Shown piece by piece: positions 3,611-59,645 of a stretch of DNA of 60,302 bases. The notes under the pieces are model-generated. The model had not been told where the DNA came from. It ran no database searches and saw only the letters and a program-made list of their open reading frames with translations. Position 1 is the stretch's first letter. Each line of letters begins with the position of its first letter. This DNA is from Candidatus Woesearchaeota archaeon. GTDB taxonomy: Archaea; Nanobdellota; Nanobdellia; Woesearchaeales; ARS49. The translations under genes and the position numbers were made by a program. The DNA lies in assembly GCA_016203305.1 (NCBI GenBank), contig JACQMY010000027.1, positions 1 to 60,302 on the forward strand, given 5' to 3'.

Positions 3611-3700
3611 TAGCCAATTGCCAACAACCTTCATCCTAATACCTAATGCCCAACTGCCTAATCCCTTCGTCCTAATTCCTTCATCCTTCCGCCTTCACCC
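3611..3700 (+). repeat. heptanucleotide-periodic G-poor array
   Basis: ccttcat|cctaata|cctaatg ... ccttcgt|cctaatt|ccttcat|ccttccg|ccttcac. Lies between two minus-strand genes yet is C-rich on +. Overlaps the hjc stop codon (3695-3697). Confidence 0.85.
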
Positions 3701-4087
3701 TTTTATGAGTTCTTCGAACAACAGTCCTTTGAGTTCTGCGTGTTCTCTGTTTATTGCGTAATTGTTGCCTGTGTCATTTAGGTCTTCTGGGTTTACAAAT
3801 CTCCAGTGCATGCTGTTGAATCTTACTGCGATTAGTGGTCGTGCTCCTGCGCGTCTGGCGTACTCTACGAGCTCTTTTACTTCTCTTTTTTCAAGGTATT
3901 GGTTGTTTTCTTTTGTTGATTTGCATTCTATAGCGAGATTAATTCCTTGTTTGTTTGCTATTATGTCTGGCGCGGGGTATTTCATGCTGCCGCTTCCTGC
4001 TACTCTGCATGCTGTCCATTGGTTGGTTTGCCAGAAAAGGTGGATTAGTTCCCTTTCTGCATTGTTTCCTTTTTGTTTGTTGCTCAC
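3695..4087 (-). CDS. hjc: Holliday junction resolvase Hjc
   Basis: GNNAERELIHLF...RVAGSGS...PDIIA...LAIECKST matches the archaeal Hjc nuclease motifs. The length (130 aa) is typical. Confidence 0.9.
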   Translation of the reverse strand: MSNKQKGNNAERELIHLFWQTNQWTACRVAGSGSMKYPAPDIIANKQGINLAIECKSTKENNQYLEKREVKELVEYARRAGARPLIAVRFNSMHWRFVNPEDLNDTGNNYAINREHAELKGLLFEELIKG

Positions 4088-6011: not shown

Positions 6012-6019
6012 AAGTATTT

Positions 6020-6334: not shown

Positions 6335-6343
6335 GGCGAGGAC

Positions 6344-11111: not shown

Positions 11112-11344
11112 CTTCACGTTGTAGGACGGTCTTGCCTTATAGCGAGTTGAGTAAATGGTGGAACTTTTATGTGTTCCCTTGCGTGAACGATACGCACGCA
11201 ACTTGTTATCTGGGCAGTTGATGCAAAAGTTCCATAATTTCATCAGCTGCCTATAGTTCTTTGCCATTTTCTTTTGAGTATTTTTCTGGCGAGTTATTTT
11301 TTGACAAGAAGTCTTTTTATACTTGGGTTCTCATGTTATTGTGA

Positions 11345-11743
11345 ATGGTTGAGATCAATTATCCTGCGGTCGAGCACATCATTGAGTTTAATCACTTGGC
11401 TCTTGCGCTTGTTAAGGTAAAGAAGGCTGACAAGCCAGTGGTATTGAGCAAACCAAAGCTTCATGAGATTGTTGAGGAATGTGAGAAAGCGCAAGGGGAG
11501 GTTTATGATAAGGCAGTGGTTCTTTTGACCGGCATTATCAAGAAACACCCTTTTGCAAGCGGAAATCGTAGAACTGCTTTCCTTGTAATGGTAGATTTCT
11601 TGTTGGATAACAACGCTGCATGCGCTCTCAAAGACGACCCCGAAAACGCTCGCGTCTTGCCGGGGATACGTGAAGGCTTTTATACTAGTGAAGAAATCAA
11701 GGAGTGGATTAAACATGGCAAAATACACTCATTCAAAAGATAA
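11345..11743 (+). CDS. doc: Doc/Fic-family toxin (death-on-curing type)
   Basis: HPFASGNRRTAF matches the Doc variant of the Fic motif (HxFx[DN][AG]N[KR]R). Confidence 0.8.
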   Translation: MVEINYPAVEHIIEFNHLALALVKVKKADKPVVLSKPKLHEIVEECEKAQGEVYDKAVVLLTGIIKKHPFASGNRRTAFLVMVDFLLDNNAACALKDDPENARVLPGIREGFYTSEEIKEWIKHGKIHSFKR

Positions 11744-11837
11744 GAAAGTCTATGAAGCAGTTATTAGCGAGTTGGAGCACTTTCAAGAGCTCGTGAAACG
11801 TTATCCAAAGCTCCTCCGCGCAATCGGCGAGTTGTAA
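11715..11837 (+). CDS. 40-aa ORF overlapping the doc 3' end (speculative partner)
   Basis: Hand-translated as MAKYTHSKDKKVYEAVISELEHFQELVKRYPKLLRAIGEL*. Below the ORF-track length cut-off, and no homology is recognised. Confidence 0.2.
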   Translation: MAKYTHSKDKKVYEAVISELEHFQELVKRYPKLLRAIGEL

Positions 11838-11908
11838 GCGAAACATTATTATTCTTGTTCACTATTCCTAAGAAAAGATTCTCGTACCTCCAAAGTAAGC
11901 TGTTTGTG

Positions 11909-11960
11909 CCCTAAAAAATCTGCGGATTTTTGGGGCCCAGAAAACCAACGGTTTTCTTGA
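11909..11960. terminator. tandem A-tract/T-tract hairpins
   Basis: aaaaatc-tgcg-gattttt, then gggcccag plus agaaaacc-aac-ggttttct. This is the same stem and junction as at 2877-2903. Confidence 0.5.
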
Positions 11961-12039
11961 GCTTACGAAGAGGGTGCCGCCTCCCGCGTGAGTCTTGACA
12001 CCCTAAACTTTTATAATCTCTTCGTGTTCTTTTTCTTTT

Positions 12040-12969
12040 ATGGACTATCGTGACAAAATTCTTGTGATCGCGCGTGCTGCTCCTGTTTTGCCGAGTGCGA
12101 TAGCTAAGGAATTGCAGACCAACAGCATTATGGCTGGTGCCATGTTGAGTGAGATGTGTGATAAGGGGTTGCTCAAAACTTCTTCTTTGCGTGTTGGTGG
12201 CAGTCCTTTGTACTTTGTTCCTGGTAATGAGGCTCAATTGTTGAATCATGTTCAGAGTTTGAATGAGAAGGATAGGCGTACTGTTAGTTTGTTGGATGAG
12301 AAAAAGTTGTTGCGCGAGTCTGAGTGTGATCCGTTGACTAGAGTGTCTCTTGCTGCGATTAAGGATTTTGCAAAGCCTCTTGTTGTGTCTTATGATGGCA
12401 AGGAGGAGCGTTTTTGGAAGTGGTTTGCCCTTGCTGACAGCGATGCTGAAAAACTGATTGGCCAGTTATTGGAGCCGCCGAAGGCAAAAGCGCCTCAAGA
12501 GCCGAAAGAGTTGGTTAAAGAAGCGCCAAAAGAGATTGTTAAAGAGGTTAAGGAGCAAGTTCCAGTTAGGGAGCCAATTCCGATAAAGGAGCAGGCAAAG
12601 CTGCCAGATTCTGAGGCAGCGAAAGCGCCTGTTCAGAAAACTTTGGAGCCGGTTAAATTAGATGGTGATTTTGCGCAGAAATTGTTGTCTTTTTTTGCTG
12701 GAAGCAATATTCTGGTTAAGGAGCAGTCTGTTGTTAAGAAGAAGACTGAGTTTGACTTGGTGCTTGACATTCCTTCTCCTGTTGGCAGTTTGACGTATTT
12801 TTGTAAGGCTAGGAGTAAGAAGAGGGTTTCTGATGGTGACGTTAGTGCTGCTTTGGTTGAGGGTCAACTGAGACGTTTGCCTGTTTTGTTTGTTACCGAT
12901 GGTGAGCTTTCCAAGCAGGCTCAGGTAATGCTTGCCAAACTTACTGGTATTACGGTGAAAAAGGTATGA
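12040..12969 (+). CDS. winged-helix protein, function unknown
   Basis: N-terminal wHTH-like PSAIAKELQTNSIMAGAMLSEMCDKGLLK, a Lys/Glu/Pro-rich linker and a conserved-looking C-terminal domain. TATA cttttataat about 26 nt upstream suggests a leaderless transcript. Confidence 0.6.
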   Translation: MDYRDKILVIARAAPVLPSAIAKELQTNSIMAGAMLSEMCDKGLLKTSSLRVGGSPLYFVPGNEAQLLNHVQSLNEKDRRTVSLLDEKKLLRESECDPLTRVSLAAIKDFAKPLVVSYDGKEERFWKWFALADSDAEKLIGQLLEPPKAKAPQEPKELVKEAPKEIVKEVKEQVPVREPIPIKEQAKLPDSEAAKAPVQKTLEPVKLDGDFAQKLLSFFAGSNILVKEQSVVKKKTEFDLVLDIPSPVGSLTYFCKARSKKRVSDGDVSAALVEGQLRRLPVLFVTDGELSKQAQVMLAKLTGITVKKV

Positions 12970-12980: not shown

Positions 12981-13088
12981 AAGGAGGAAGGTATACGGTG
13001 GAAGGGTGAAGAAATTTTATCATCGTTCTTCTACCTTCGTCCTTCCGCCTTCGTCCTACAACCTAATTCCTACAACCTTCTTCCCGTT
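12981..13088 (+). repeat. heptad array with inverted arm (hairpin)
   Basis: G-rich arm aaggagg|aaggtat|acggtgg|aagggtg (12981-13012), then ccttcgt|ccttccg|ccttcgt|cctacaa|cctaatt|cctacaa|ccttctt (13034-13082). Directly after the stop at 12969. Confidence 0.85.
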
Positions 13089-13101: not shown

Positions 13102-14112
13102 ATGGGTGTTAATTTGCGTGAATTGTTGGTGCGGAAGCCGATTTCGTTAGAGCAATTGTCTGGGAGGACTTTGGTTGTTGATGGTAATAACATGTTGTAC
13201 CAGTTTCTTTCCACTATTCGGCAGCGTGATGGTTCTTTGTTTACTGATCACAATGGGCGTGTTACTAGTCATCTTATTGGTTTGTTTTCTCGCGTGACAA
13301 ATCTCATGCAGAAAGGTATTAAGTTGGCTTTTGTTTTTGATGGTAAGGTTCCTGAGCTTAAGCATCGTGAGCTTGCCAGGCGTGCTGAGATTAAGCAGGA
13401 GGCTGAGAAGAAGTATCAGGCTGCTTTGGCCGCTGCTGACCAAGAAAGTATGCAGAAGTTTGCCGCTCGTACTTCTCGTTTGACTAAGGATATGATTGCC
13501 GAGGCTAGGCAACTGCTGTCTTTGCTTGGTTTGCCTTCTATTATTGCTCCTTCTGAGGGCGAGGCGCAGGCTGCATATATGGTCAAAAAGGGTAGCGCTT
13601 GGGCTGTTGCTTCTCAGGATTATGATAGTTTGTTGTTTGGCGCTCCTCGTTTGGTTCAGAATCTTTCCATCGAGGGCAGGCGTAAGCTTCCTGGCAAGTT
13701 GGCGTATGGTAGGGTGGAGCCGTTGTTGGTTGAGTTGGAGGAAAACTTGAAGGTTCTTGGTATTTCTCGTGAACAGTTATTTTGGCTTGCCGTGTTGGTT
13801 GGTACTGATTACGCGCCTGGGGGCGTTAAAGGTATTGGTCCTAAGAAGGGGCTTTCTTTAGTCAAGCAGTGTTCTTCTGCTGAACAAGTTTTTGCTGGAA
13901 AAGATCTTGATGGTGTTGGCTGGCAGGAAGTCTTGGATGTTTTTCAGTCAATGCCTGTTTCTGATGACTACTCGTTGGTGTGGAAGCCTGTTGACCGGCA
14001 AGCGTTGTTTGACTTTTTGGTTAAGGAGCATGATTTTAGCCAGGACCGTGTTGAGAAGGTGATTGATTTGATCGCTCCTGCTAGGAATCAGAGTAGTTTG
14101 GGTGATTTTTAA
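13102..14112 (+). CDS. fen: flap endonuclease 1
   Basis: MGVNLRELL...VVDGNNMLYQFLS N-terminus, with XPG-N/I and H3TH motifs. SD gaggtg at 13092-13097. The ORF-track extension from 13006 merely reads through the heptad array. Confidence 0.92.
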   Translation: MGVNLRELLVRKPISLEQLSGRTLVVDGNNMLYQFLSTIRQRDGSLFTDHNGRVTSHLIGLFSRVTNLMQKGIKLAFVFDGKVPELKHRELARRAEIKQEAEKKYQAALAAADQESMQKFAARTSRLTKDMIAEARQLLSLLGLPSIIAPSEGEAQAAYMVKKGSAWAVASQDYDSLLFGAPRLVQNLSIEGRRKLPGKLAYGRVEPLLVELEENLKVLGISREQLFWLAVLVGTDYAPGGVKGIGPKKGLSLVKQCSSAEQVFAGKDLDGVGWQEVLDVFQSMPVSDDYSLVWKPVDRQALFDFLVKEHDFSQDRVEKVIDLIAPARNQSSLGDF

Positions 14113-14933: not shown

Positions 14934-14964
14934 TTCTTCATCCTAATGCCTGCAACCTAAAACC
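14934..14964 (+). repeat. short heptad array
   Basis: ttcttca|tcctaat|gcctgca|acctaaa, between convergent trm5 and pan. Confidence 0.6.
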
Positions 14965-17371: not shown

Positions 17372-17491
17372 GACTACAAACTACACACTACAAACTAACG
17401 GCCAATAGCTAGGTTGAAGGTGTAAGGTTGAAGGGTGAAGATCTTCTGTCTTCGTCCTTCTCCCTTCCACCTTAGTCCTACATCCTACAAA
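17372..17491 (+). repeat. heptad array with inverted arm (hairpin)
   Basis: actacaa|actacac|actacaa|actaacg|gccaata, then the G-rich arm ggttgaaggtgtaaggttgaagggtgaag, then cttcgtccttctcccttccacc ... ctacaaa. Confidence 0.85.
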
Positions 17492-18484: not shown

Positions 18485-18942
18485 GGCTGCTTGAGGGTGC
18501 TGATCTTGAGACTGCAGTGAGTTGGATGGCTTTTGCGGCAGTCGAGGCCGAGGATTCTTCTTGCAGAAAGGCAAAGCGCGGTGTTGTTCTAGTTCGGGGG
18601 GGGGGTTGCTTATTGGGAAGGGTCATAACGCTCCTCCTTGTGGGTTTGCGTGTGAGCCAAGGTATTGTGAGCCTAGTTGTTCAGGTTATGCTGTGCATGC
18701 TGAGATGAATGCGCTTGCTGATGCTGTGCGTGGTGGGTGTGATGTTCGTGGTTCTACTATGTATCAGGTTCGTGTGGAGGATGGTGTTATACAGGATTCG
18801 CGTCCTCCTGTGTCCTGATTGTAGTAAGCACTTGTTGGCGTTTGGTGTTGCGTATTTTGTGTTGAAGCACGCTGCTGGTGTTACTGTTTATGATGTGAGC
18901 GAATTGCACGTGCTTGGCTTGGATAACGCGCGAAATAAATAA
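18481..18942 (+). pseudogene. dCMP/cytidine deaminase-family gene interrupted by two frameshifts
   Basis: Three frames join to give SSCRKAKRGVVLVRGG / LLIGKGHNAPP...HAEMNAL...SRPP / CPDCSKHLL (HAExNA and PCxxC zinc motifs). The breaks are at the G10 run (18596-18605) and at about 18810. ATGA overlap with rfcS. Confidence 0.75.
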
Positions 18943-18946: not shown

Positions 18947-19040
18947 CTACACACTACCAACAGCCTTCGTCCTAATGCCCAACGCCTACTACCTACGCAC
19001 TACTTACTACAAACTATCTTCATCCTACGTTCTAACCTAT
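18947..19040 (+). repeat. heptad array
   Basis: ctacacactaccaacagccttcgtcctaatgcccaacgcctactacctacgcactacttactacaaactatcttcatcctacg, between convergent genes. Confidence 0.8.
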
Positions 19041-19978
19041 TACTGTTCTCCAGAACTCTTTACTGTTATTGTTGTTTGTATGCTTTGTTCGTAGTCGTAT
19101 GATAGTTCGATGTTGACTAGTTGTTCAAAGTCTGTTTTTGTGGTTATCGGCTGTGTGCAGCTGATGGTTTTGATGCCGCCATATAGTGTTGTCCATCCTG
19201 CTGCTCCGTTTGCAGTGCTTTCCAATGCCGTGCATTGTAGTCCTGCTATTCCGGTGTTGACTGTTACGTAAACTCTGTCTTCGTTTTTGCGGTCACTTCT
19301 ATCGCAGTTTTTGGCTCGTTCGAAGACGTTTCCTGTTCCTGCGTTGCGTACGTCAAATGTGAATCCTATTCTGTCTTTGCTTCGCGTGCTTTCTTTGAAG
19401 TTTGTTGCTTGTACTGGGCTTCCGCTGTTGTGGACTGGTTTGTCTTGGTTTATTTCGCAGATGCCGCCTGTTTCTGGGTTTAGCAGGTCTTCTCGTACGC
19501 ATATTTTGCTTACTGCTTTGGTTTTGTACAAATAGCATGCTTCTGCTCTTAGTGTGTATTGTGTTGTTGCTCCTGCTATTTTGCTTTTGTAATTCATTCC
19601 TGTGAATTCTACGAATGCAGGTGGTGGCGCTATTGTTTGTCCTTGTGGTGTTTTTCTTTGTTCTATCACGTCGTCTGGGCTTACTCGTGTTAGTTCTGCT
19701 TCTGTTTTGCTGAATTCTGCAGGGTTTATTCCGCTGAGCTTGACTCTTACGTTTTCTTTTGGAACTAGTGTTTCTCCTTTGTTTTCCAGTCTTACAACAA
19801 CGTCAAATGGGTCTGTTCCGCCGTCAAACACGTCTTTTCTTAGGTTTTCAAAGCTTAATTGGAGTCCTTGTGCGCCGCCTACAAATGGGCTTTCCAGGTT
19901 GACTGCTTGTTTTTTGGGTTCTTGTTTGCATCCGATTAGGAGAATTGTTAGTATTGCTAAAATTATGATTTTTTTCAT
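19040..19978 (-). CDS. secreted lipobox protein, paralog family member 1 (unknown function)
   Basis: Signal peptide ending LLIGC. Shares ACY.Y.T.A...(I/V)C, a G(S/Q)(P/GAP)V.(A/V)T block and F.(I/V).(V/I)(R/Q)N.G.G with 20088..21032 and 21152..22078. Confidence 0.75.
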   Translation of the reverse strand: MKKIIILAILTILLIGCKQEPKKQAVNLESPFVGGAQGLQLSFENLRKDVFDGGTDPFDVVVRLENKGETLVPKENVRVKLSGINPAEFSKTEAELTRVSPDDVIEQRKTPQGQTIAPPPAFVEFTGMNYKSKIAGATTQYTLRAEACYLYKTKAVSKICVREDLLNPETGGICEINQDKPVHNSGSPVQATNFKESTRSKDRIGFTFDVRNAGTGNVFERAKNCDRSDRKNEDRVYVTVNTGIAGLQCTALESTANGAAGWTTLYGGIKTISCTQPITTKTDFEQLVNIELSYDYEQSIQTTITVKSSGEQ

Positions 19979-20046
19979 TGTTTCCTCTTTTATGTGTTCT
20001 TCAGAATACTGTTTTTATAAACTTTGTGTCGTACAGTACGCGGGGA

Positions 20047-20090
20047 GTCTTCATTCCTCCGCCTTCTTCCTACAGCCTAGCGCCTACTTA
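20047..20090 (+). repeat. heptad array
   Basis: tcttcattcctccgccttcttcctacagcctagcgcctactta, between two minus-strand genes. C-rich on +. Confidence 0.75.
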
Positions 20091-21032
20091 CGGCACTGCT
20101 CTTATCTCTATTGGTTTGGCTATGCTTTGTCTGTACCCGTATCTTATGATTACGTTTAGCGGTGTTAAGTATGCTGTTTGTCCTTGTGCGTCTACTTCGC
20201 AGAAGACTTGTCCTGCGCCGTTTACTAGTCTTACGTGGCCGTCTTTGTCTAGTCCTTTGCATGTTGGCTTAATGCTTGTTCCTGAGATCTGGACATCGGT
20301 AAACTGGACAAAGTCAACTTCGTCAAATGCGAGTCCGGGGCTATAGGGACTGCATTTGTTGATGTATTGTGTTCCGTAGCGGAAGACGTTTCCTCCTCCA
20401 ACGTTTTGTATGTTGATGATGAATCTTGTTTTGCTTGGTTGTGGTTCTACTTGTACACTGGTGACTGCTATTGGGGCGCCTTGGCTTCCTGTGCCTGCTG
20501 TGGTGGGGGTGCAGACTTTTTGGACGTTTGTTGGTGCATAGGGTTGTGGATCTATGCAGACTTGTGCGCTTGCTATTGTTTCGTAGTTGTAGCATGCTGT
20601 TGCGAGTATGAGTGGTTGGTACTTGTCTATTCTTTTGTCTGTTAGGCTTCGTATTTGGCCTTTCCAGTTCAGTGTGTCAAATCCTCCTCTGCTGATGAAT
20701 GCTGTTCTGCCGTCTAGTATTGGTATTGGCATGCCGTCCATTCCTATGCCTGTGATTATGTTGTGGTCAAATCCGGATAAATACACTCTGTCTCCTCCGC
20801 CTCCTATTTTGCTCGTTCCTACATTTTCTATTTGTAGCATTACGTTGAATGGGTCTCTGTCGTACATTCGTGATGGTGGCAGGTTTTGCACAAACTGGAG
20901 TGTTATTCCTTGGCTTCCTGTTCTGAAGTCTGTTGGTTGTGGTGCTTGTTTTGATGGCTGTATTTGGCATGCGAGTAGTGCTACCAGAAGTAATGCTGCC
21001 ATCACGCTCTTTTTCATGTTCTTGTCTTTCAT
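20088..21032 (-). CDS. secreted lipobox protein, paralog family member 2
   Basis: Signal peptide ending ALLAC. Conserved ATACYNYETIASAQVCID, GSQGAPIAVTSV and INIQNVGGGN. Confidence 0.75.
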   Translation of the reverse strand: MKDKNMKKSVMAALLLVALLACQIQPSKQAPQPTDFRTGSQGITLQFVQNLPPSRMYDRDPFNVMLQIENVGTSKIGGGGDRVYLSGFDHNIITGIGMDGMPIPILDGRTAFISRGGFDTLNWKGQIRSLTDKRIDKYQPLILATACYNYETIASAQVCIDPQPYAPTNVQKVCTPTTAGTGSQGAPIAVTSVQVEPQPSKTRFIINIQNVGGGNVFRYGTQYINKCSPYSPGLAFDEVDFVQFTDVQISGTSIKPTCKGLDKDGHVRLVNGAGQVFCEVDAQGQTAYLTPLNVIIRYGYRQSIAKPIEIRAVP

Positions 21033-21074
21033 TGAACTCTTTTTAAATACTTTTTGGTGTGTTGTGGCCCACTG

Positions 21075-21156
21075 TCTTCATTCTTCCGCCTTATTCCTTC
21101 GTCCTATATCCTAATGCCTACAACCTAAAGCTAACAGCTAATAGCCAACAACTAAC
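21075..21156 (+). repeat. heptad array
   Basis: cttcattcttccgccttattccttcgtcctatatcctaatgcctacaacctaaagctaacagctaatagccaacaactaac. Overlaps the stop of 21152..22078. Confidence 0.8.
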
Positions 21157-22078
21157 ATGGTGGTTGTCCCGGCAGCCTTGTTATAGTGACTGGCAGTACT
21201 GCTGTGTTCATGTATCCGTAGTCGAGTTGTACTTCTAGGATTGTGCTGAACGTGCCTTCGAGTTGGCCGTAGCTTTTGCCTGCTCTGCAGACTATTCGTG
21301 TTTCCTTGCCTTCTTCTAGGCGTGCTTGTCTTGGTGTGCAATCTAGTTGTTCGTCTTGTAGTTGTACGTTTACGTCTACTCTGCTTTCTAGTGTTGCTGT
21401 TTCTGATGTTCCGCATGCTGCTTCTACTGCGTCCTGGCTTATTGCTCTTCCGTTGCCGAGGTTTTGTACGTATATGACGAATGTTGGCTTTACGTTTGGC
21501 CCGTCTGGTGTCATGCTTGGCTCGACGCGTGTTACTGCTACTGGTGCTCCCTGTCCTCCGCCGAGTGAGGTTAGTTGTGCTCTGCAGGTTTTTTGCGGGT
21601 TTAGATTGCGCAGGTCTGGGTCTATGCATACTGGCACGCCTGCGTACGTTTCGTAGTCATAGCATGCTTGGAAAATGACTGGGGTGTCGTATACTTCTAG
21701 TTGGCTTGGCAGCCCTGGATTTCTTACTTTTAGTGCTACTTGTTGTATTCCTCCTGTTGGGTTGTATTGGCTTTTTCCTTCTAGGTTGAATGTTTTTTGG
21801 CGTTCTCTTTTTTGTGTTGGCTGTATCACTTGGTCTTCCAAAATAAAACTATACACGCCGTTTTCTATGTCTGCTGTTCCGAGATTTTTTAGCATTAGTA
21901 ATAGGTCTGCTTCTTGGCACATGTAGATGTTGTTCATGCTTGTTGGTTGAAATCTTGCGTCTAGTGCTTGTGTTCCTGTTGCTATGTATGGTGGCATTTG
22001 TGTTTGTTGTCCGAATTGGAACTGGCATGCCGCGAGGAGTAACAAGCTAATTGCCAAAAGCCAAACGCCGTTCTTCAT
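21152..22078 (-). CDS. secreted lipobox protein, paralog family member 3
   Basis: Signal peptide ending LLAAC. Conserved FQACYDYETYAGVPVCID, GGQGAPVAVTRV and IYVQNLGNG. Confidence 0.75.
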   Translation of the reverse strand: MKNGVWLLAISLLLLAACQFQFGQQTQMPPYIATGTQALDARFQPTSMNNIYMCQEADLLLMLKNLGTADIENGVYSFILEDQVIQPTQKRERQKTFNLEGKSQYNPTGGIQQVALKVRNPGLPSQLEVYDTPVIFQACYDYETYAGVPVCIDPDLRNLNPQKTCRAQLTSLGGGQGAPVAVTRVEPSMTPDGPNVKPTFVIYVQNLGNGRAISQDAVEAACGTSETATLESRVDVNVQLQDEQLDCTPRQARLEEGKETRIVCRAGKSYGQLEGTFSTILEVQLDYGYMNTAVLPVTITRLPGQPPC

Positions 22079-22236
22079 CCTTCCACCTTCGTCCTACAAT
22101 CACTAGCTTTTAGCCTTTGGCCTTTAGCCGTTAGTACTAATAGCCAACAGCCAATTGCTAATAGCCAAAAGCCTACATCCTTCGTCCTAACGCCTAATGC
22201 CCAACGCCTAATGCCTACTTCCTTCACCCTTTGGCT
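22079..22236 (+). repeat. heptad array (about 22 units)
   Basis: ccttcca|ccttcgt|cctacaa|tcactag|cttttag|cctttgg|cctttag|ccgttag|tactaat|agccaac|agccaat|tgctaat|agccaaa|agcctac|... Starts immediately after the ATG of 21152..22078. Confidence 0.88.
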
Positions 22237-23966: not shown

Positions 23967-25127
23967 TCATTCCGCCTTGATGGTAAGTTTGACGATGTTG
24001 AGCTCGGTGAATGGTTTGATTTCTACGTAGTTGTTTCCTTCTCTGACGAGTGTGGTGATGTCTTTTTCGTATTCTGGGTCTATTTGGTTGATTGCGTCAA
24101 ACTTTCCGTTTACGTTGAGTTGTGCTTGTTTTTTCTCTCCGTCGTCTACGAATTCCATGCGGAGTATGACTCTGAAATCTCTGTCTAGGATGTCGTCATA
24201 TAGTTCGCTTTTTAGTGTGAAATAGTCTATGTAGCTTTTGACTGGTTTCAGGATGGTGCGTACTCTGATGTTTTCAAATCTGTAACTTCCCTTGGTGATT
24301 TTGAAAGTGAGTGTGTTTTTGCTTTCTCTTAGGTCTTCTTTGTACAGGTCTTGTCTGTTTATGCTGTCGCAGCTTGGTGTTGAGCTGTAGACTGCTTTTC
24401 CGTTTAGTTCTATGGTGACTGGTCCTACGTCTTGTTGTTCGCATATTGCGTAGAAGTCTAGGAATGCGTTGTCTAGATGGTCTTTTTCGCTTTCTGATAT
24501 TGTGAATGTGCTGCTGCTTGTTTGTCGTTCTGTTTCAACTAGCTCGCCTACTACTTTGATGTCTGTTAGTGCGTATTTTTTCTTGCTGAAGAATCCTCCT
24601 GTGACGCTGAATTCTAGTTGGTTTGTGCTTCTCAGTAATTGTTTTGGTAGTATTACTGGTGGCGGATTCTGTACTGGTATGTATCCTTGGAATATTGGTT
24701 GTCCGTTTAGTGTTATTATTAGTTCTCCTGCGCGTTCTAGTGTTTGGAAGCTTAGCATGATGTTTTCTGTTTTTTCTGGCTCGTGTAGCGTGAAGGTCAT
24801 TGTTTTTTGTTGTCCGCTGAACCATCCTGTTGAGACTGTGAATGGGTTTTCTTGTGCCAGGACTGCTGCTTGTTTGCTTTCTGCTAGGTAGATGTTGGCT
24901 AGTTCGTGGTCGTTTACTGCTCTTTCTGTGAATTCTAGTCTTCCTGGTGATTCGTCAAGCAGTATGCGTTCTTCGAGTGAGGTTGCATTTTCTCCTTCTA
25001 GGAGTGCTCGTCTTTCTTCTGCCGGCAGAAATAGTATGTATCCGATGAAGAGTAGTGTTATGATGCCGATGAGTGCTACTGCTGGACTTCCGCTTTGGAT
25101 TGGGCTCTTGCCGCGCTTATTCATCAT
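23967..25127 (-). CDS. N-terminally anchored secreted protein (possible class III signal peptide)
   Basis: MMNKRGKSPIQSGSPAVALIGIITLLFIGYILF. It has the same MNKRG start as pilin-like genes at 50894 and 55126. It is the first gene of the minus-strand operon. Confidence 0.7.
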   Translation of the reverse strand: MMNKRGKSPIQSGSPAVALIGIITLLFIGYILFLPAEERRALLEGENATSLEERILLDESPGRLEFTERAVNDHELANIYLAESKQAAVLAQENPFTVSTGWFSGQQKTMTFTLHEPEKTENIMLSFQTLERAGELIITLNGQPIFQGYIPVQNPPPVILPKQLLRSTNQLEFSVTGGFFSKKKYALTDIKVVGELVETERQTSSSTFTISESEKDHLDNAFLDFYAICEQQDVGPVTIELNGKAVYSSTPSCDSINRQDLYKEDLRESKNTLTFKITKGSYRFENIRVRTILKPVKSYIDYFTLKSELYDDILDRDFRVILRMEFVDDGEKKQAQLNVNGKFDAINQIDPEYEKDITTLVREGNNYVEIKPFTELNIVKLTIKAE

Positions 25128-25196
25128 TCACCTTTTTTAAGATGGTGCTTCTTCAGAGCGAATAGTATTTAAATGTTTTTACCTGTCAGTATGCTG

Positions 25197-25262
25197 AGTT
25201 AGTAGTGTGTAGTCAGTAGTTAGTAGATTTCTACAAACCACACACTACAAACTACACACTAA
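25197..25262 (+). repeat. heptad array with inverted arm
   Basis: gttagtagtgtgtagtcagtagttagtag, then ctacaaaccacacactacaaactacacacta. Lies in a divergent promoter region. Confidence 0.8.
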
Positions 25263-25263
25263 T

Positions 25264-26307
25264 ATGAAAATATTGGAGAAGAACTTGAGGCAGGGGGAGG
25301 TCAAGGTACTTGTTGAGTCTCCTGAGGATGTTTGGTTTTTGTCTCAGCTGATTGACTCGGGAGATATAATTAAGGGTAAAACTTTTCGTAAGATGAAGGT
25401 TTCTGAGGAGGCTGATGCGACTAAGCGTGCTGTTTTCATGGCTGTGCGTGCTGAGAAGGTTGAATACTTGCCTGGTATGTTGAGGATTAATGGCAAGGTT
25501 GTTGATGGTCCTGAGGATGTTGCAAGGGGCAGCTATCATACTTTTGCTGTTGAGCAGGGCTTGTCTTTTTCTATTGTTAAGGAGCATTGGCTTGGCTTTC
25601 AGTTGGATCGTTTGCAGGAGGCTGCAGAGCAGCGAAAGGCGAAAATTTTGATTTGTGTTTTTGATCGTGAGGAGGCGTTTTTTGCTTTGTTGAAGGCTTC
25701 CGGTGTTGAGCTGCTCTCACACATTCAGGGTGATGTTGAGCGGAAGCGTGTTCAGACTTCTTCAAAAGTTAATTTTTTTGAACAGGTTGTCAAGCAGATT
25801 CAAGATTATGATGTTCGTTTTGAGTGTGATGCTGTTGTTGTGGCGTCTCCTGCTTTTTGGAAGGAGGAATTGTTGAAGGTTGTCAAGGATGACAAGTTGA
25901 GGAGGAAGCTTGTTCTTGCTTCTTGTTCTTCTGTTGATGAGGGCGCTATTGATGAGGTGCTTAAACGAGACGAGGTGCGTTCTGCTTTGCGGCAGGAGCG
26001 TACTTCGCGTGAGATGCTTTTGGTCGACCAGGTGTTGGGCGAGATTGCAAAAAAGGGTCCTGTTGTTTATGGTTTAAAACAGACAGAGACTGCTGCGTCT
26101 GCTGGCGCGATTTCTACTTTGCTCGTTACCGACAGTTTGATTTCTAAGCTTCGGGAACGGAATGAGTTTGCTCAGGTTGATGCTATAATGCGCCTGGTTG
26201 ACAGGCAGAAGGGGAAGGTTGTTATTGTTTCTCATGAGCATGCTGGTGGCAAGCGTCTTGATGGCTTGGGCGGCATTGCTGCTTTGTTGCGTTACCGTCT
26301 TGAATAG
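25264..26307 (+). CDS. pelA: Pelota (Dom34 homolog, mRNA surveillance)
   Basis: MKILEKNLRQGEVKVLVESPEDVWFLSQLI..., with three eRF1-like domains. 347 aa. Confidence 0.9.
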   Translation: MKILEKNLRQGEVKVLVESPEDVWFLSQLIDSGDIIKGKTFRKMKVSEEADATKRAVFMAVRAEKVEYLPGMLRINGKVVDGPEDVARGSYHTFAVEQGLSFSIVKEHWLGFQLDRLQEAAEQRKAKILICVFDREEAFFALLKASGVELLSHIQGDVERKRVQTSSKVNFFEQVVKQIQDYDVRFECDAVVVASPAFWKEELLKVVKDDKLRRKLVLASCSSVDEGAIDEVLKRDEVRSALRQERTSREMLLVDQVLGEIAKKGPVVYGLKQTETAASAGAISTLLVTDSLISKLRERNEFAQVDAIMRLVDRQKGKVVIVSHEHAGGKRLDGLGGIAALLRYRLE

Positions 26308-26464
26308 CAACCTACAAACTACCTTCGTCCTTCTTCCTTCCGCCTTCGTCCTAATACCTACAACCTTCCTCCTTCACCCTTCGTCCTAATACCTTCTCCC
26401 TTCATCCTACAACCTAATACCTTCAAACTACACACTACTAACTACTAACTACAAACAACTAACC
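26308..26464 (+). repeat. heptad array (20 units in perfect register from 26322)
   Basis: ccttcgt|ccttctt|ccttccg|ccttcgt|cctaata|cctacaa|ccttcct|ccttcac|ccttcgt|cctaata|ccttctc|ccttcat|cctacaa|cctaata|ccttcaa|actacac|actacta|actacta|actacaa|acaacta. Confidence 0.92.
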
Positions 26465-26504
26465 ATGAAGAACGCATCAAAATGACGATGTTTGAGTTGC
26501 TAAA

Positions 26505-26704
26505 TGTTTAAATAACACTGGGCGTTGTTAAAAATCTAACTCCGGAGTAGTAATTCCCCGCTGGAGTTGCGTGCAATGATGGGTTCACCAACAGGTGGGA
26601 ACCAAAAAGTTTTAATACCTGATTGGTTACCTCATGCGAATAACAAAAACGTGTTACGGAAATGTCGGAGTGACGTTTCCGTCGTGAAAAAGGGGGGAGG
26701 GTAA
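26505..26704 (+). promoter_or_regulatory. TATA box plus about 160-nt structured leader (three hairpins) upstream of the TrmB paralog 2 gene
   Basis: TATA tgtttaaataa (26505-26515). Hairpins at 26538-26568 (aactccgg/ctggagtt), 26581-26603 (ggttcacc/ggtgggaacc) and 26657-26681 (cggaaatgtc/gacgtttccg with one G-U pair). SD ggggggaggg at 26692-26701. Confidence 0.35.
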
Positions 26705-27511
26705 ATGATAGTCAAAGATGATTTTTTGAGTAAGCTGCGCCGGTATTTTGTTTTGAACTTGTATGAAGTGAAGATTTGGACTGCGTTGTTGTCACGAGGC
26801 GTGGCAACAGCAGGCGAGTTGTCTGATATTGCGAACGTTCCTCGCAGTAGGAGTTATGATGTTCTTGAAAGTTTGGAAAGAAAGGGCTTTGTCATTATGA
26901 AGTTGGGCAAGCCGATTAAATACATCGCCGTTCCTCCGCAGGAAGTTTTGGAGCGTGTGAAGAAGAATTTGAGCGAGGAAGCTTCCGAGCGTGTCAAGCG
27001 TTTGGAAGAGCTGAAGACAACTGATGTGCTTGAAGAGCTTAACTCTTTGCACACGCAGGGTATTGAGTTGGTCGAGCCTTCTGAGCTGTCTGGCAGTTTG
27101 CGTGGCCGTCATAATTTGTACTCGCATTTGGAGCTTGCCATTCGTAATGCTCAGCAGAGTGTTACGTTGATGACAACTTCTCAGGGCTTGTTGCGTAAGG
27201 TTGAGGGTTTCAAGCCATTGTTTGAGAAGTTGAAGAAGCGTGGCGTGAAGGTTCGCATTGCTGCTCCTTTGACTAAGGACTCCAAGGACGCGATTAAGGA
27301 TCTTGGTGATGTTGCCGAGCTTCGTCATAGCGAGGGCAAGGCGCGTTTCTGCATCGTTGATGGCAAGGAGCTTGTCTTCATGATTATGGACGATGCTAAT
27401 GTGCACCCGACTTATGATGTTGGCATTTGGGTTAACACGCCGTTTTTCGCGTCTGCATTGGAGAACATGTTCAATGTTGCGTGGAAGTCTATGAAGCCAG
27501 CAGGCAAGTAG
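26705..27511 (+). CDS. TrmB-family transcriptional regulator (paralog 2)
   Basis: A 63-aa stretch (WTALLSRG...LERVKK) is identical to the protein encoded at 184..969. The C-terminal domains have diverged. Confidence 0.88.
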   Translation: MIVKDDFLSKLRRYFVLNLYEVKIWTALLSRGVATAGELSDIANVPRSRSYDVLESLERKGFVIMKLGKPIKYIAVPPQEVLERVKKNLSEEASERVKRLEELKTTDVLEELNSLHTQGIELVEPSELSGSLRGRHNLYSHLELAIRNAQQSVTLMTTSQGLLRKVEGFKPLFEKLKKRGVKVRIAAPLTKDSKDAIKDLGDVAELRHSEGKARFCIVDGKELVFMIMDDANVHPTYDVGIWVNTPFFASALENMFNVAWKSMKPAGK

Positions 27512-32105: not shown

Positions 32106-32248
32106 TCTTCCGCCTTCGTCCTACTGCACGAGTTTGTAGCTTGTAGTCGGTAGTGCGTAGTACTACAAACTACTTACTACAACCTACTCCCTACGTCCTT
32201 CTACCGTCATCCTAATTCCTAAAACCTAATACCTACAACCTATATCCT
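32104..32248 (+). repeat. composite heptad array with inverted arm
   Basis: Contains the 60-nt block 32113-32172, which recurs at 32838-32904. Confidence 0.85.
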
Positions 32249-32279
32249 CGTAAGTCTTTTAAATACCTATCTGAATGGT

Positions 32280-32828: not shown

Positions 32829-32925
32829 TTCCTACATCCTTCGTCCTACAGCACGAGTTTGTAGCTTGTAGTAAGTAGTCGGTAGTGCGTAGTACTACAA
32901 ACTATCTTCACCCTTCATCCTAATA
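32829..32925 (+). repeat. composite heptad array with inverted arm
   Basis: The 67-nt block 32838-32904 equals the 32113-32172 block plus one extra heptad (aagtagt). Overlaps the stop of 32920..33360. Confidence 0.85.
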
Positions 32926-44188: not shown

Positions 44189-44766
44189 TGGCGCGGCTTC
44201 TTCGTCCTACTTCCTACAACCTAACGCCTTCGTCCTTCGTCCTTCATCCTACGCCCTACTACCTTCGTCCTACAAACTACAAACTACGAACTGCAAAGGG
44301 CCAGGTTAAGATGTTCGAGACCGTGGGAGTGTTGGTCGTGTTTTTCTTTTTGCTTATTTCCGGTTCTGTGTTTTATTTTGGTGCGCAGAAGTCTTCTTTG
44401 CAGAAGGAGAAGGTTAAGGCTTCTGAGCAGCAGGCGTTGCAGGTTGTTTTGAAGGCTTTGTACTTGCCTGAGCTTGATTGTTCTTTTTTGAAGGCTCAGC
44501 GTGAGAATTGTATTGATAAGTTGAAATTGCGGCATGTTGCTGCTTTGATGCGTAATGAGTCTGTGTTTTCTAATTATTATCCTGAGTTTGGCTACGCGAC
44601 TATTCGCGTGCAGGAGTTGTATCCTGCTGGCGAGTCTGTTGATGTTTATGTTCGTAAGGCTGAGGAGTATTCTTCTATTTTGGTTACTCAGAGTCCGATT
44701 TTGTTGTACGATCCTGTGAGGGAGACTTATGGTTTTGGTGTTATTGAGGTGGCTGCTTATGTCTAG
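44188..44766 (+). CDS. pilin-like protein whose predicted leader is encoded by a heptad array
   Basis: TGATG coupling at 44186-44190. The leader MARLLRPTSYNLTPSSFVLHPTPYYLRPTNYKLRTAKGQ precedes VKMFETVGVLVVFFFLLISG. The only alternative start, ATG 44311, would remove the KGQ motif. Confidence 0.55.
   Translation: MARLLRPTSYNLTPSSFVLHPTPYYLRPTNYKLRTAKGQVKMFETVGVLVVFFFLLISGSVFYFGAQKSSLQKEKVKASEQQALQVVLKALYLPELDCSFLKAQRENCIDKLKLRHVAALMRNESVFSNYYPEFGYATIRVQELYPAGESVDVYVRKAEEYSSILVTQSPILLYDPVRETYGFGVIEVAAYV
44197..44292 (+). repeat. heptad array (inside the 5' end of ORF 44188..44766)
   Basis: cttcttcgtcctacttcctacaacctaacgccttcgtccttcgtccttcatcctacgccctactaccttcgtcctacaaactacaaactac. Confidence 0.85.
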
Positions 44767-45310
44767 TCGACAAACTACGGACTACGCACTACAAACTACT
44801 AACTACAAACCACAAACTAGGGGCCAGATGGAGATTTTCGGTCTGGTCGTTATTGTTATTCTTGTCGCTCTTGGTTTGTTGTTCGCTGTTGTAGTGTTGA
44901 CTAAAAAGCCTGCTCAGCAGTCTCAGAGGGTTAAGGAGAGCATTCAGGCTGCTAATTTTTTGAATACTTTGTTGGGCACTACTGTTGAGAATTGTAACAG
45001 GCGTACGATGAGGGAGTTAGTGCAGGATTGTGCTTTGGCGTCTGTTGGCAGTGGTGAGTGGCTTGGTGATTCTTTGTGCGAAGATGGTGTTTCGACTTGT
45101 AAAAAGCTTAATTCAACTACTGCTTTGTTGTTGGACGCTACTTTGGGTGAGTGGGGTAAGAGGTATAATTTTTTCATGGCCGGTTCTGATGCTATTGAGC
45201 TTGTTCAGATTAGGAATGGTGATTGTAAGGGTGAGCGTGAGGGCAGCACTCGTCCTGAGATTGTGCGTCCTGGTTTTTCTATTAATGTTACGTTGCACAT
45301 TTGCAGATGA
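44759..45310 (+). CDS. pilin-like protein with heptad-array-encoded leader
   Basis: MSSRQTTDYALQTTNYKPQTRGQ|MEIFGLVVIVILVALGLLFAVVVL. ATG 44759 overlaps the upstream stop. The alternative start ATG 44828 lacks the RGQ motif. Confidence 0.55.
   Translation: MSSRQTTDYALQTTNYKPQTRGQMEIFGLVVIVILVALGLLFAVVVLTKKPAQQSQRVKESIQAANFLNTLLGTTVENCNRRTMRELVQDCALASVGSGEWLGDSLCEDGVSTCKKLNSTTALLLDATLGEWGKRYNFFMAGSDAIELVQIRNGDCKGEREGSTRPEIVRPGFSINVTLHICR
44770..44819 (+). repeat. heptad array (ACTACNN class)
   Basis: acaaactacggactacgcactacaaactactaactacaaaccacaaacta. Confidence 0.8.
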
Positions 45311-45326
45311 TCGAGGGCAAAGGCAG

Positions 45327-45425
45327 CAGGTGTAAGGGTGAAGAACGCACTATTCTTCCTTCACCCTTCGTCCTAACACCTACGTCCTTCCGCCTTCATC
45401 CTACAACCCTACACACTACAAACTA
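45327..45425 (+). repeat. heptad array with inverted arm (hairpin after the operon end)
   Basis: aagggtgaag ... cttcaccctt forms a 10-bp stem, followed by cgtcctaacacctacgtccttccgccttcatcctacaaccctacacactacaaacta. Confidence 0.85.
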
Positions 45426-48084: not shown

Positions 48085-48200
48085 TCTACACACTACTTAC
48101 TACAAACTATCTTCGTCCTTCTTCCTTCGCCCTTCCGCCTTCGTCCTTCATCCTAACGCCTAATACCCAATGCCTAATCCCTTCCACCTTATACCTTTCT
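48085..48200 (+). repeat. heptad array
   Basis: ctacacactacttactacaaactatcttcgtccttcttccttcgcccttccgccttcgtccttcatcctaacgcctaatacccaatgcctaatcccttccacc. Confidence 0.85.
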
Positions 48201-49983: not shown

Positions 49984-50250
49984 GATTCTACAAACCACAC
50001 ACTACAAACTACCAACTACAAACTATCTTCATCCTTCCGCCTTCATCCTAATACCTAACGCCTAATACCTAATTGAGGTTGAAGGTATAAGGTGGAAGGA
50101 TGAAGACCGTTGTTCTTCCGCCTTCTTCCTTCACCCTTCGTCCTAATACCTAACGCCTAATACCTAATTGAGGTTGAAGGTATAAGGTGGAAGGATGAAG
50201 ACCGTTGTTCTTCCGCCTTCTTCCTTCCACCTTCATCCTACCCAATGCCT
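49984..50250 (+). repeat. long heptad array containing two hairpin modules and an 87-nt perfect direct duplication
   Basis: 50046-50132 is identical to 50141-50227. Each copy holds the inverted arm aggttga|aggtata|aggtgga|aggatga. Confidence 0.9.
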
Positions 50251-53140: not shown

Positions 53141-53149
53141 TTTTCTCAG

Positions 53150-53281
53150 TCTACACACTACTTACTACAAACCACTTACTAATTGCCAACAGCCACCTAA
53201 TGCCAAACGCCGTTCTTCTCCCTTCCGCCTTCTTCCTTCATCCTTCTCCCTTCCACCTTCGCCCTTCTTCCTTCACCCACT
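53150..53281 (+). repeat. heptad array
   Basis: ctacacactacttactacaaaccacttactaattgccaacagccacctaatgccaaacgccgttcttctcccttccgccttcttccttcatccttctcccttccaccttcgcccttcttccttcaccc. Confidence 0.88.
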
Positions 53282-56462: not shown

Positions 56463-56545
56463 TCTTCTTCCTACAACCTTCATCCTTCCGCCTTCGTCCT
56501 AATACCTACTTCCTTCCGCCTTCATCCTAATTCCTACCACCTAAA
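56463..56545 (+). repeat. heptad array
   Basis: ttcttcttcctacaaccttcatccttccgccttcgtcctaatacctacttccttccgccttcatcctaattcctaccacctaa. Confidence 0.88.
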
Positions 56546-56587
56546 TTCTTATAAATAAGTTCTATACTGCTTTTGTTGGGGTGCTTA

Positions 56588-58845: not shown

Positions 58846-58952
58846 GTCTTCATCCTTCCGCCTTCGTCCTAATGCCAAATGCCCAACGCCCTAATACCTT
58901 CGTCCTTCCGCCTTCATCCGCCTACAACCTAATACCCAACAGCCAAAAGCTA
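58846..58952 (+). repeat. heptad array
   Basis: gtcttcatccttccgccttcgtcctaatgccaaatgcccaacgccctaataccttcgtccttccgccttcatccgcctacaacctaatacccaacagccaaaagc. Confidence 0.88.
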
Positions 58953-59459: not shown

Positions 59460-59465
59460 CATTCG

Positions 59466-59645
59466 TCTACAAACTGCGGGCTAATGGCCACTGGCCAACA
59501 TCCTTCGTCCTAATTCCTACAACCTAACGCCTAATACCTACATCCTTCGTCCTAATACCTAATAGCCAAAAGCCTACATCCTTCGTCCTAATACCTTCTT
59601 CCGCCTTCATTCTTCGTCCCAATCCCCACTTCCCACTGGACACTA
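59466..59645 (+). repeat. heptad array (about 25 units)
   Basis: ...catccttcgtcctaattcctacaacctaacgcctaatacctacatccttcgtcctaatacctaatagccaaaagcctacatccttcgtcctaataccttcttccgccttcattcttcgtcccaatccccacttccc. Confidence 0.88.

Follow-up and report, generated by a model that had tools for sequence, protein, structure and literature searches.

Heptad arrays of fixed strand orientation in the intergenic spacers of a Woesearchaeota-like archaeal contig

The 60,302-nt contig JACQMY010000027.1, referred to in its full length as the window, carries in the spacers between its genes a family of tandem heptad arrays that all run in the same direction along the chromosome. Arrays of 30–260 nt composed of the degenerate heptads CCT[T/A][C/A]NN, ACTACNN and GCCAANN were found at about 22 intergenic loci, and the C/A-rich strand of the arrays is in every case the strand that is otherwise rich in T and G. 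The arrays appear to form a lineage-specific family of strand-polar intergenic elements, the orientation of which would be set by the chromosome strand. That this orientation is set at the level of the strand and not at the level of transcription is very probable. That the arrays are selected binding platforms for a single-strand-specific factor on the lagging-strand template is suggested more tentatively, at somewhat below even confidence, from features of the sequence.

Detection and orientation of the arrays

Tandem Repeats Finder (TRF) reported dozens of arrays with periods of 7, 14, 21, 28 or 35 nt, and a strand-neutral autocorrelation gave 157 high-scoring windows for period 7 compared with no more than 5 for each other period from 3 to 12. 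The pattern consisting of four CCTWMNN units followed by CCT has 52 matches on the forward (+) strand and 0 on the reverse (−) strand, with 0 expected, and runs of three heptads occur 92 times on + versus 3 times on − (expected 0.00/0.01). When a position matrix for the CCT-type heptad, learned from the arrays, was used with a uniform background, 25 arrays (188 heptads) were detected on + and 5 arrays (21 heptads) on −. All 5 minus arrays are the G-rich arm of an imperfect hairpin (families D10/D13; fold energies −13 to −15 kcal/mol), immediately beside a + array. When strand was disregarded in detection, more C than G was found on the + strand in 23 of 25 period-7 segments, the two exceptions being a chance-level segment inside the PheRS-beta gene and an inverted GTAG hairpin arm. 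Independent arrays are distributed 25:0 in favour of + over 56 kb, in spacers between two + genes (++), two − genes (−−), convergent genes and divergent genes alike. They are confined to spacers, apart from the chance-level coding segment and one array inside a predicted open reading frame (ORF) at 59863-59927.

The first-pass annotation of this DNA had listed 12 such arrays, and all of them were recovered to within about 10 nt and in 7-nt register, with C at 0.33–0.44 and G at 0.04–0.13 on the + strand. It had also described G-rich heptads as present only in inverted arms, which agrees with the confinement of the minus arrays to hairpins beside a + array; three of the listed arrays (25197-25262, 32829-32925 and 45327-45425) themselves also hold a G-rich inverted arm. 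The gene directions that it gave for the flanks are the same in the codon model, the Pfam matches and the synteny with relatives used here. The orientation was said to be absolute, regardless of gene direction, and no flips were found in four −− and four convergent spacers; this lack of any flip excludes, as a general explanation, a promoter, Shine-Dalgarno (SD) or terminator signal that turns with its gene. An independent Logan contig is 100% identical over 24749-26881, a segment that includes the largest array, and a base-identical independent assembly rules out an assembly artefact. Sequencing reads of the organism occur in SRR12113383.

Composition of the arrays and of the surrounding DNA

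Every 2-kb bin has a positive GC skew and a negative AT skew, so that a single polarity extends over the whole window. At four-fold degenerate sites the overall composition, in + strand terms, is T 0.67, G 0.19, C 0.09 and A 0.05. These values are consistent with the T- and G-rich background previously noted for the + strand. Because four-fold sites are alike in + genes (A 0.06, C 0.09, G 0.18, T 0.67) and in − genes (A 0.03, C 0.10, G 0.19, T 0.68, again in + strand terms), the bias belongs to the strand itself and is due neither to transcription nor to coding. The bias is comparable to that of animal mitochondrial DNA, and we know of nothing comparable to T 0.67 against A 0.05 at neutral sites in cellular genomes. 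An increase in T and G with loss of C and A is the classical deamination signature of the strand that is single-stranded for longer. In relatives, the strand in the sense of the PheRS genes is C/A-rich at loci L235, L359/L360 and L363/L364, and G/T-rich, as in the window, at L361/L362, L367-L370 and L371-L374. The occurrence of one syntenic block in either skew polarity therefore fits a positional, replication-type asymmetry, and we infer that the skew of the window is replicational in origin.

The arrays have C 0.42, A 0.18 and G 0.06 on the + strand, and non-array intergenic DNA has C 0.17 and G 0.25. That the arrays oppose the background, as was claimed earlier, holds for G over C, the GC skew of the arrays being about −0.76, but not for T over A, which the arrays retain, though A is enriched about 3.5-fold over neutral sites. 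Since C 0.42, A 0.18 and G 0.06 contrast with only C 0.09 and A 0.05 at neutral sites, the arrays are not a product of mutational drift, which was ruled out because their composition is opposite to the neutral equilibrium. A composition so far from that of neutral sites indicates that the arrays are held by selection or by continual regeneration. The heptad consensus is C(.94) C(.99) T(.94) [T/A] [C/A] N N, and the CCT core at positions 1–3 is thus 94–99% intact despite the pressure from C to T, which supports selection for a binding platform. Variation lies mostly at positions 4–7, includes transversions (TC, AA and AC classes) and is not dominated by transitions.

With only 9% C and 5% A left at neutral sites, the C/A-rich orientation is the one most exposed to C to T and A to G pressure. 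The opposite orientation, with AGG-type heptads on +, is seen only in hairpin arms. A function symmetric with respect to strand should favour AGG on +, since most C would then lie on the protected strand, and the orientation therefore appears to be imposed at the level of one strand.

Placement of the arrays between genes

Genes were defined by a self-trained strand-specific codon model together with Pfam matches and synteny with relatives, giving about 68 genes, 51 on + and 17 on −. For spacers of at least 30 nt in resident DNA, an accessory island considered below being excluded, arrays are present as follows.

++ spacers: 11 of 19
−− spacers: 4 of 7
Convergent spacers: 4 of 5
Divergent spacers: 2 of 7

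Among spacers of at least 100 nt, arrays are found in 0 of 5 in the island and 17 of 24 in resident DNA (hypergeometric P ~0.007, by our own count). The −− spacers with arrays are those at TFE/Hjc and those among three lipoprotein-like genes and their neighbour.

An array starts about 0–25 nt past the upstream stop codon and ends at or before the next TATA box. The order on the + strand is the stop codon of the upstream + gene, a short T-tract, ACTACNN heptads, a TCTTCNN junction, CCTTCNN and then CCTAANN/CCTACNN heptads, sometimes with GCCAANN after these, and finally the transcription factor B recognition element (BRE) and TATA box of the next gene, which typically has a leaderless-type start about 25–30 nt further on. 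The −− spacers keep the same chromosomal order, so that the array adjoins the stop codon of the right-hand gene on one side and, on the other, is 20–45 nt beyond the TATA box of the left-hand gene.

This layout bears on whether the arrays act in RNA. An unstructured C-rich tract could serve in + transcripts as a binding or termination platform in 3′-untranslated or intercistronic regions, or as an anti-SD-like CCUUC sponge. The uniform orientation would then follow from transcription being mostly on +, and arrays beside − genes would act on antisense or read-through RNA or be co-opted, for example as SD-rich leaders. The position of the arrays, from 5–25 nt past the stop codon and T-tract of + genes to the next TATA box, and the 51:17 ratio of genes agree with such a role. 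Furthermore, CCUUC can pair with GGAGG or GAAGG, five loci combine a G-arm resembling SD+ATG/GTG with a C-arm, the minus-strand reading of 22072-22099 is a real SD+ATG, and CCTTCNN arrays in bacteria and phages often stand directly upstream of an SD/ATG. However, a transcript signal would be expected to flip with the genes and does not, and at eight arrays in −− or convergent spacers the transcript of the adjacent gene has the G-rich complement. No Rfam family was matched, and no + promoter was found before the arrays in −− spacers, where the BRE appears to lie on the minus-gene side. An RNA-level role is considered distinctly unlikely. Independent small RNA genes on the + strand of the −− spacers were also rejected, on inspection only, as the TATA boxes there have their BRE on the side of the minus gene. 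The tracts further resemble Rho-utilisation sites (C-rich, G-poor and unstructured) in the case of + genes, but the transcripts of − genes carry the G-rich complement; to our knowledge, Archaea lack Rho.

Alternatively, the arrays may be read as duplex DNA by a nucleoid protein, a histone-excluding protein or a transcription factor, with 7-bp phasing that places three heptads on two helical turns and an orientation inherited from a founder. At least 6 of the 11 arrays in ++ spacers abut the BRE/TATA of the downstream gene, others lie 20–45 nt upstream of the TATA boxes of minus genes, the window encodes several TrmB-family regulators, and a histone gene occurs in relatives. Against this, a strand-symmetric function should have drifted to, or been founded again in, the mutationally safer opposite orientation, arrays are present in convergent spacers that have no promoter, and a 21-nt super-period shows no excess over 14, 28 or 35 nt in TRF. 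Binding to duplex DNA is judged very unlikely.

Individual arrays

The arrays and array modules are listed below in the order of their coordinates.

3611..3705, +: heptad array of GCCAANN then CCT-type units in a −− spacer; it abuts or overlaps the stop codon of Hjc (3695-4087, −) and lies upstream of the TATA box of TFE (3226-3534, −).
12982..13085, +: hairpin module of family D10/D13 with a G-rich arm (12985-13012) and a C-rich array (13027-13082), fold −15 kcal/mol, z −3.95; ++ spacer upstream of FEN1, the real start of which is likely the ATG at 13108.
14935..14962, +: short array of four heptads in the convergent spacer between TYW2 (+) and the PAN ATPase gene (−).
17373..17490, +: composite array of ACTACNN heptads, a G-rich arm (17407-17441) and a C-rich array (17442-17490); it ends at the TATA box (TTTTTTATAC) of the RFC small-subunit gene, and the orthologous spacer of L367 also bears an array.
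18947..19040, +: array of ACTAC- and CCT-type heptads in a convergent spacer, ending at the stop codon of 19040-19978 (−).
20048..20089, +: array in a −− spacer, abutting the stop codon of 20088-21032 (−) and about 25 nt beyond the TATA box of 19040-19978 (−).
21068..21156, +: array of CCT-type then CTAANAG/CCAACAA heptads in a −− spacer, abutting the stop codon of 21152-22078 (−).
22043..22236, +: array that fills a whole −− spacer and extends, with its register kept, into the 5′ end of the coding sequence of 21152-22078 (−).
25197..25262, +: hairpin of ACTACNN-type heptads (−11.8 kcal/mol) in a divergent spacer, with a G/T-rich arm then a C/A-rich arm; it ends 1 nt before the Pelota ATG.
26310..26467, +: largest plain array, with 15 CCT-type heptads and ACTACNN heptads directly after the Pelota stop codon; fold as single-stranded DNA (ssDNA) −0.1 kcal/mol, and reproduced in the independent assembly.
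32113..32249, +: array in a divergent spacer that includes an inverted GTAG arm and the left copy of a 67-nt repeat (D19); its end is 11 nt short of the TATA box of the RNase P p30 gene.
32829..32925, +: array in a convergent spacer that includes an inverted GTAG arm and the right copy of the 67-nt repeat (D19).
44199..44297, +: array of 11 CCT-type heptads and ACTACNN heptads in a ++ spacer.
44770..44819, +: array of ACTACNN type, with an SD-like GGGG and an ATG just downstream of it.
45317..45425, +: hairpin module (G-rich arm 45317-45344) and C-rich array in a convergent spacer.
48085..48200, +: array in a ++ spacer, in the order stop codon, TTTT, ACTACNN, TCTTCGT, CCTTCNN, CCTAANN and a TATA-like sequence.
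49985..50243, +: array complex with a 95-nt unit present 2.3 times (D15) and G-rich arms at 50079-50106 and 50174-50201.
53147..53279, +: array in a ++ spacer, with ACTACNN, GCCAANN and then nine CCTTCNN heptads (0 kcal/mol); CTTTATAAA and a leaderless-type start come next.
56463..56553, +: array in a ++ spacer, the last heptads of which continue into the TATA box TTCTTATAAATA.
58847..58939, +: array in a ++ spacer upstream of a YdjM-like gene.
59465..59638, +: array in a ++ spacer, with the TATA-like CATATTTAAA 26 nt further along.

At 22043..22236 the array supplies AAGGTGGAAGG-ATG for the gene 21152-22078 (−), and the minus-strand reading of 22072-22099, AAGGTGGAAGGATGAAGAAC, is the SD and ATG of this gene. 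The segment 22043-22078, which encodes the signal-peptide end of its lipoprotein-like product, is in heptad register (GCTAATT GCCAAAA GCCAAAC GCCGTTC TTCAT) and has a near-repeat in the ++ spacer at 53180-53214. Either arrays invade gene starts, or a fragment of a gene start has been copied together with an array. The 67-nt direct repeats (32113-32179 and 32838-32904, 81% identity), which contain inverted GTAG-type heptads, flank RNase P p30 on both sides. The 95-nt units at 50027-50240 are 94–96% identical, each combining a C-rich array with a G-rich arm that can be read as SD+ATG and then a short ORF, and look like a recent tandem duplication of an array module. The array at 59863-59927, of GCCAACA/GCTAATA type, is inside the predicted + ORF 59771-60205 and, if translated, would give a peptide with a period of seven residues (ANSQQLI-like).

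Heptad vocabulary and signs of copying

The 188 heptads comprise 56 distinct words, the most common being CCTTCGT (22), CCTAATA (16), CCTTCAT (13), CCTACAA (13) and CCTTCCG (11). Neighbouring heptads are identical in only 2 of 163 cases, and an origin as a slippage microsatellite was ruled out on this basis. Telomere-like repeats were likewise ruled out, given the interstitial position and the degenerate sequence of the arrays. Repeated heptad bigrams number 38 compared with 18.3 +/- 3.1 in shuffled arrays, and blocks of several heptads are common to several loci. The junction ACTACAAACTA/TCTTC recurs between loci, a TCTTCNN junction heptad comes first in about 15 of 25 arrays, the string TCCTTCCGCCTTCGTCCTAATACCTAC is shared by the arrays at 26335 and 56483, and repeat family D10/D13 has five copies. 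The plain arrays have no secondary structure as ssDNA (0 to −0.1 kcal/mol), and hairpin arms at seven loci fold at −10 to −15 kcal/mol.

These features raise the possibility of a selfish element or a by-product without a function of its own. A composite element consisting of ACTACNN, TCTTC junction, CCTTCNN and CCTAMNN modules would have been copied into spacers behind stop codons in a manner specific to the replication strand, whether by template switching at the fork or by transposition of single strands on the lagging-strand template as for IS200/IS605 and REP/RAYT. Module order and junctions are conserved across loci, and the long shared strings (TCCTTCCGCCTTCGTCCTAATACCTAC and the five D10/D13 copies), the 95-nt tandem duplication, the 67-nt repeat on either side of one gene, the excess of repeated bigrams (38 versus 18.3 +/- 3.1 expected) and the hairpin arms at seven loci all fit copying. 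The same applies to the restriction of the arrays to this lineage, with most of the relatives examined lacking them, to their absence from the recently acquired island, and to a placement at 3′ gene ends but rarely in divergent spacers that resembles REP/BIME elements and the heptamers of Xanthomonas (PMC4692102). However, no transposase, RAYT or reverse transcriptase was detected among about 55 window ORFs scanned with Pfam, and most arrays have no palindrome. Unselected C-rich copies should also decay quickly where neutral sites have 9% C, yet the CCT core is 94–99% intact and heptad variation is not transition-dominated. Finally, the arrays in those spacers of L367 that are orthologous to window spacers have unrelated heptad words, and look like cases in which the presence of an array was maintained rather than like a shared insertion. 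Copying without function, akin to the insertion or amplification coupled to replication that the first-pass annotation gave as its alternative, is the main rival reading, possible but rather unlikely.

Arrays in relatives and in other genomes

Relatives were represented by about 17 syntenic loci, found via homologues of PheRS and of the lipoprotein-like proteins and amounting to about 100 kb of non-redundant DNA. No homologue in the searched collections is closer than 72% (PheRS) or 68% (lipoprotein-like) identity. Among the syntenic loci, period-7 arrays are present only in L361/L362 (one) and L367 (three), and all run against the skew. The L367 arrays, at 6968-7002, 8023-8076 and 13323-13377, consist of (CTGANAA)n and (CNNCNAA)n and have the same layout of stop codon, array and TATA box. 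Two of them are in spacers orthologous to window spacers, and the PRC-RFC spacer bears an array in both genomes. As the heptad words of L367 differ from those of the window, the presence of an array has been kept in these spacers and the sequence has not. The five loci of opposite polarity (L235, L359/L360 and L363/L364) contain no period-7 arrays.

A scan of genome contigs with CTTCNNCCTTCNNCCTTCNNCCTAM gave at least 113 loci, each with a single array and from a variety of bacteria; none of the matches listed belongs to a relative of this archaeon. Viral contig scans gave only perfect repeats of bacterial or phage type or chance matches, and metagenome contigs gave mostly eukaryote-type CCCTAAA/CCCTTCA telomere-like repeats. 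A protein query made from the translated array had one match, in an unrelated GC-rich bacterial contig. The CCT-core arrays of bacteria and phages (L122-L234, L002-L121 and L365) are widespread, with forms such as (CCTTCAG)n, (CCTTCTG)n, (CCTACTG)n and (CCTAANN)n and a 280-nt example in L365; hosts include Acidobacteriota, Desulfobacterota, Cyanobacteria, Bacteroidota, Planctomycetota, Chloroflexota and phages. In many cases a G-rich inverted arm is present or an SD/ATG stands directly downstream. Among the matches listed, those in bacteria are divided 21/19/17/13 between the four gene contexts and have no clear relation to local skew. A literature search found no paper on these bacterial and phage arrays. 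They share with the window arrays the CCT-core heptads, a change from TTC to TAM at the 3′ end, the G-rich arm and the intergenic location, but are mostly perfect tandem copies and single at a locus, whereas the window has one in spacer after spacer.

Comparison with known repeats and polar motifs

Several families of intergenic heptanucleotide repeats have been described in prokaryotes, and the short tandemly repeated repetitive (STRR) heptamers of cyanobacteria are among them. TAACTGA repeats are known in Beggiatoaceae, cyanobacteria and Bacteroidetes (MacGregor 2015, PMC4679880). Most sets in Ca. Maribeggiatoa are directed at the start codon downstream of them, and the units are identical copies, 2–6 in number and up to 43 (PMC4679880). 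One set of Microcystis arrays between stop codons is all in one chromosomal orientation, an observation that was not explored further by MacGregor (PMC4679880). Like the window arrays, TAACTGA repeats have a tandem 7-nt unit, are nearly all intergenic, mix related heptads within an array and lack predicted secondary structure; some of them stop 1 nt short of a start codon, as the array at 25262 does before Pelota, and the (CTGANAA)n array of L367 contains the TAACTGA heptamer. The window arrays differ in being archaeal, in having CCT-core words and non-identical neighbours, and in keeping to one strand regardless of gene direction.

The GGGAATC and GGGGA(T/C)T heptamers of Xanthomonas and Nostoc have no preference for plus or minus strand or for leading or lagging strand (Rehm et al. 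2015, PMC4692102), and their length varies between relatives at conserved loci (PMC4692102). They too are intergenic, lie nearer to the ORF on their upstream side, and are frequent between tandem or convergent genes but seldom found between divergent ones. However, they form G-quadruplexes (G4), and the C-rich strand of the window arrays has no G4 and no stable fold and is restricted to one strand of the chromosome. The window arrays therefore have the tandem 7-nt intergenic unit, the depletion from divergent spacers and the proximity to the end of the upstream ORF found in heptanucleotide repeats, but neither identical units nor an orientation that is directed to the start codon or indifferent to strand. 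They are best classed with the prokaryotic intergenic heptamer repeats, as a new variant that is strictly polar and not generated by slippage.

Chi, KOPS/AIMS and the archaeal ASPS are single 8-mers that are scattered through genes and spacers and are G-rich along the skew. Such replication- or segregation-polar oligomers were reportedly treated by Hendrickson & Lawrence in 2006 and by Cortez et al. in 2010. They resemble the arrays in keeping one orientation over tens of kb, independent of genes, on the strand with leading-strand composition. The likeness to Chi and KOPS/AIMS that was proposed for the arrays in the first-pass annotation nevertheless does not stand, as the arrays are periodic, strictly intergenic and 30–260 nt long rather than dispersed oligomers of about 8 nt, and run against the skew and not with it (C 0.42 and G 0.06 where neutral sites have G 0.19 and C 0.09). 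Of the DNA-level polar function suggested there, the orientation fixed by strand and independent of genes is retained, but the elements are not Chi/KOPS-like and their positions follow transcription units.

REP/BIME elements, which are associated with RAYT transposases and were reportedly treated by Di Nocera in 2013, are also short, dispersed and intergenic at 3′ gene ends, with hairpins in some copies. Most window arrays are non-palindromic, however, and heptad periodicity is not a feature of REP. IS200/IS605 elements reportedly transpose as single strands with an orientation bias tied to the lagging-strand template (Ton-Hoang 2010). No RAYT/TnpA (HUH) gene was found among the window proteins scanned with Pfam.

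A possible role on single-stranded DNA

By the logic of deamination, the array strand would be the single-stranded lagging-strand template, which is identical in sequence to the leading strand. Selection would maintain the arrays as platforms in 7-nt register for a factor specific for single strands, such as an OB-fold or KH-type protein, that engages the array strand when it is unwound, most likely in replication or fork repair. The stretch from a stop codon to the following promoter, where the arrays lie, would be the only place that permits them. In favour of this proposal are the uniform orientation, the contrast with neutral composition, the conserved CCT core, the rarity of identical neighbours, the lack of any fold in plain arrays, the skew polarity that varies with locus among relatives, the anti-skew course of the arrays found in relatives and the lack of arrays in the weak-skew island. 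A protein reader of ssDNA is expected under this proposal, as is a flip of orientation on the other replichore. More specifically, the arrays could represent a new archaeal replication-polar element, in the form of a periodic ssDNA platform on the lagging-strand template that flips at origin and terminus and is selected against a mitochondrion-like deamination skew; its partner would be an ssDNA-binding protein associated with the replisome, with restart or with repair, for example. This more specific form is regarded as doubtful.

Several observations weigh against a selected platform on the lagging-strand template. The one link to replication is the skew, in a window with no origin, terminus or polarity switch, and none of the relatives examined has skew polarity uncoupled from gene orientation at an array-bearing spacer. 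Because the array-bearing relatives share the polarity of the window, tracking of the strand and tracking of the gene block are inseparable there. The positions of the arrays are tied to transcription units, after the stop codon and before the TATA box, so that a role in RNA is possible for the 75% of genes that are on +. The shared multi-heptad blocks and conserved junctions also fit a copied, dispersed element. Relatives at 60–72% identity are mostly without arrays, and any function must therefore be dispensable or specific to the lineage.

Other features of the window

Pfam matches in the window include archaeal-type PheRS alpha and beta, Pelota, TFE, Hjc, tRNA-splicing endonuclease, PAN ATPase, ribosomal protein L34e and RNase P p30, and FEN1 and the RFC small subunit were recognised by their N-terminal sequence and by synteny with Pfam-annotated genes of relatives. 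The best homologues of PheRS alpha are from 'Candidatus Woesearchaeota', at no more than 72% identity, and by its sequence the source of the window is a Woesearchaeota-like DPANN archaeon. Scans for tRNA genes and Rfam families detected none in the window. A 1716-aa protein without a Pfam match is encoded at 37482-42632, with three Cys-rich repeats of about 74 nt at 41299-41672 (...SDVDCGG.C...), and is probably a large surface protein typical of DPANN archaea.

The accessory island (5900-12040, ~6 kb) includes genes for ArsR, two SHOCT proteins, methyltransferases, and DsrE-like, GNAT, TrmB-like and Fic proteins. It has almost no strand skew and no heptad arrays, and for these reasons was probably acquired recently. 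The tRNA-splicing endonuclease gene and its neighbour, which adjoin one another in L367 and L371, are separated in the window by the inserted island.

A conserved non-coding element of about 200 nt is present at 26470-26704, upstream of a TrmB-like gene, and contains two TATA-like boxes. Its counterparts are at 8700-8898 in L362, 8950-9166 in L359, 4250-4466 in L363 and 8950-9170 in L235, with the invariant blocks ACTTCAGAGTAGTAATTCCCC, GTTTTACCTCA, AATAACAAAAACGTGTTACGG, CGGAGTGAA and AAAAAGGGGGGAGG. It has no match in Rfam and may be a small RNA or a regulatory leader.

A short ORF at 18522-18818 has a weak match to dCMP/cytidine deaminase (E 5e-4). L368 carries a full 154-aa dCMP_cyt_deam_1 gene at the same position, adjoining RFC, and the window copy may be truncated or frameshifted. 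The putative deaminase remnant is of note given the deamination-type skew of the genome.

Implications

Arrays rich in C and A that persist where C and A are being lost provide a clean signature of selection or of active regeneration. If their orientation tracks replication, the arrays would be the first polar element of a repeat-array type to be described in archaea, would offer a marker of fork direction that can be read from sequence in uncultivated DPANN genomes, and would point to a strand-specific DNA-binding activity that has so far not been described. Whatever the mechanism behind the arrays, the exceptional strand bias at neutral sites in this Woesearchaeota lineage stands.

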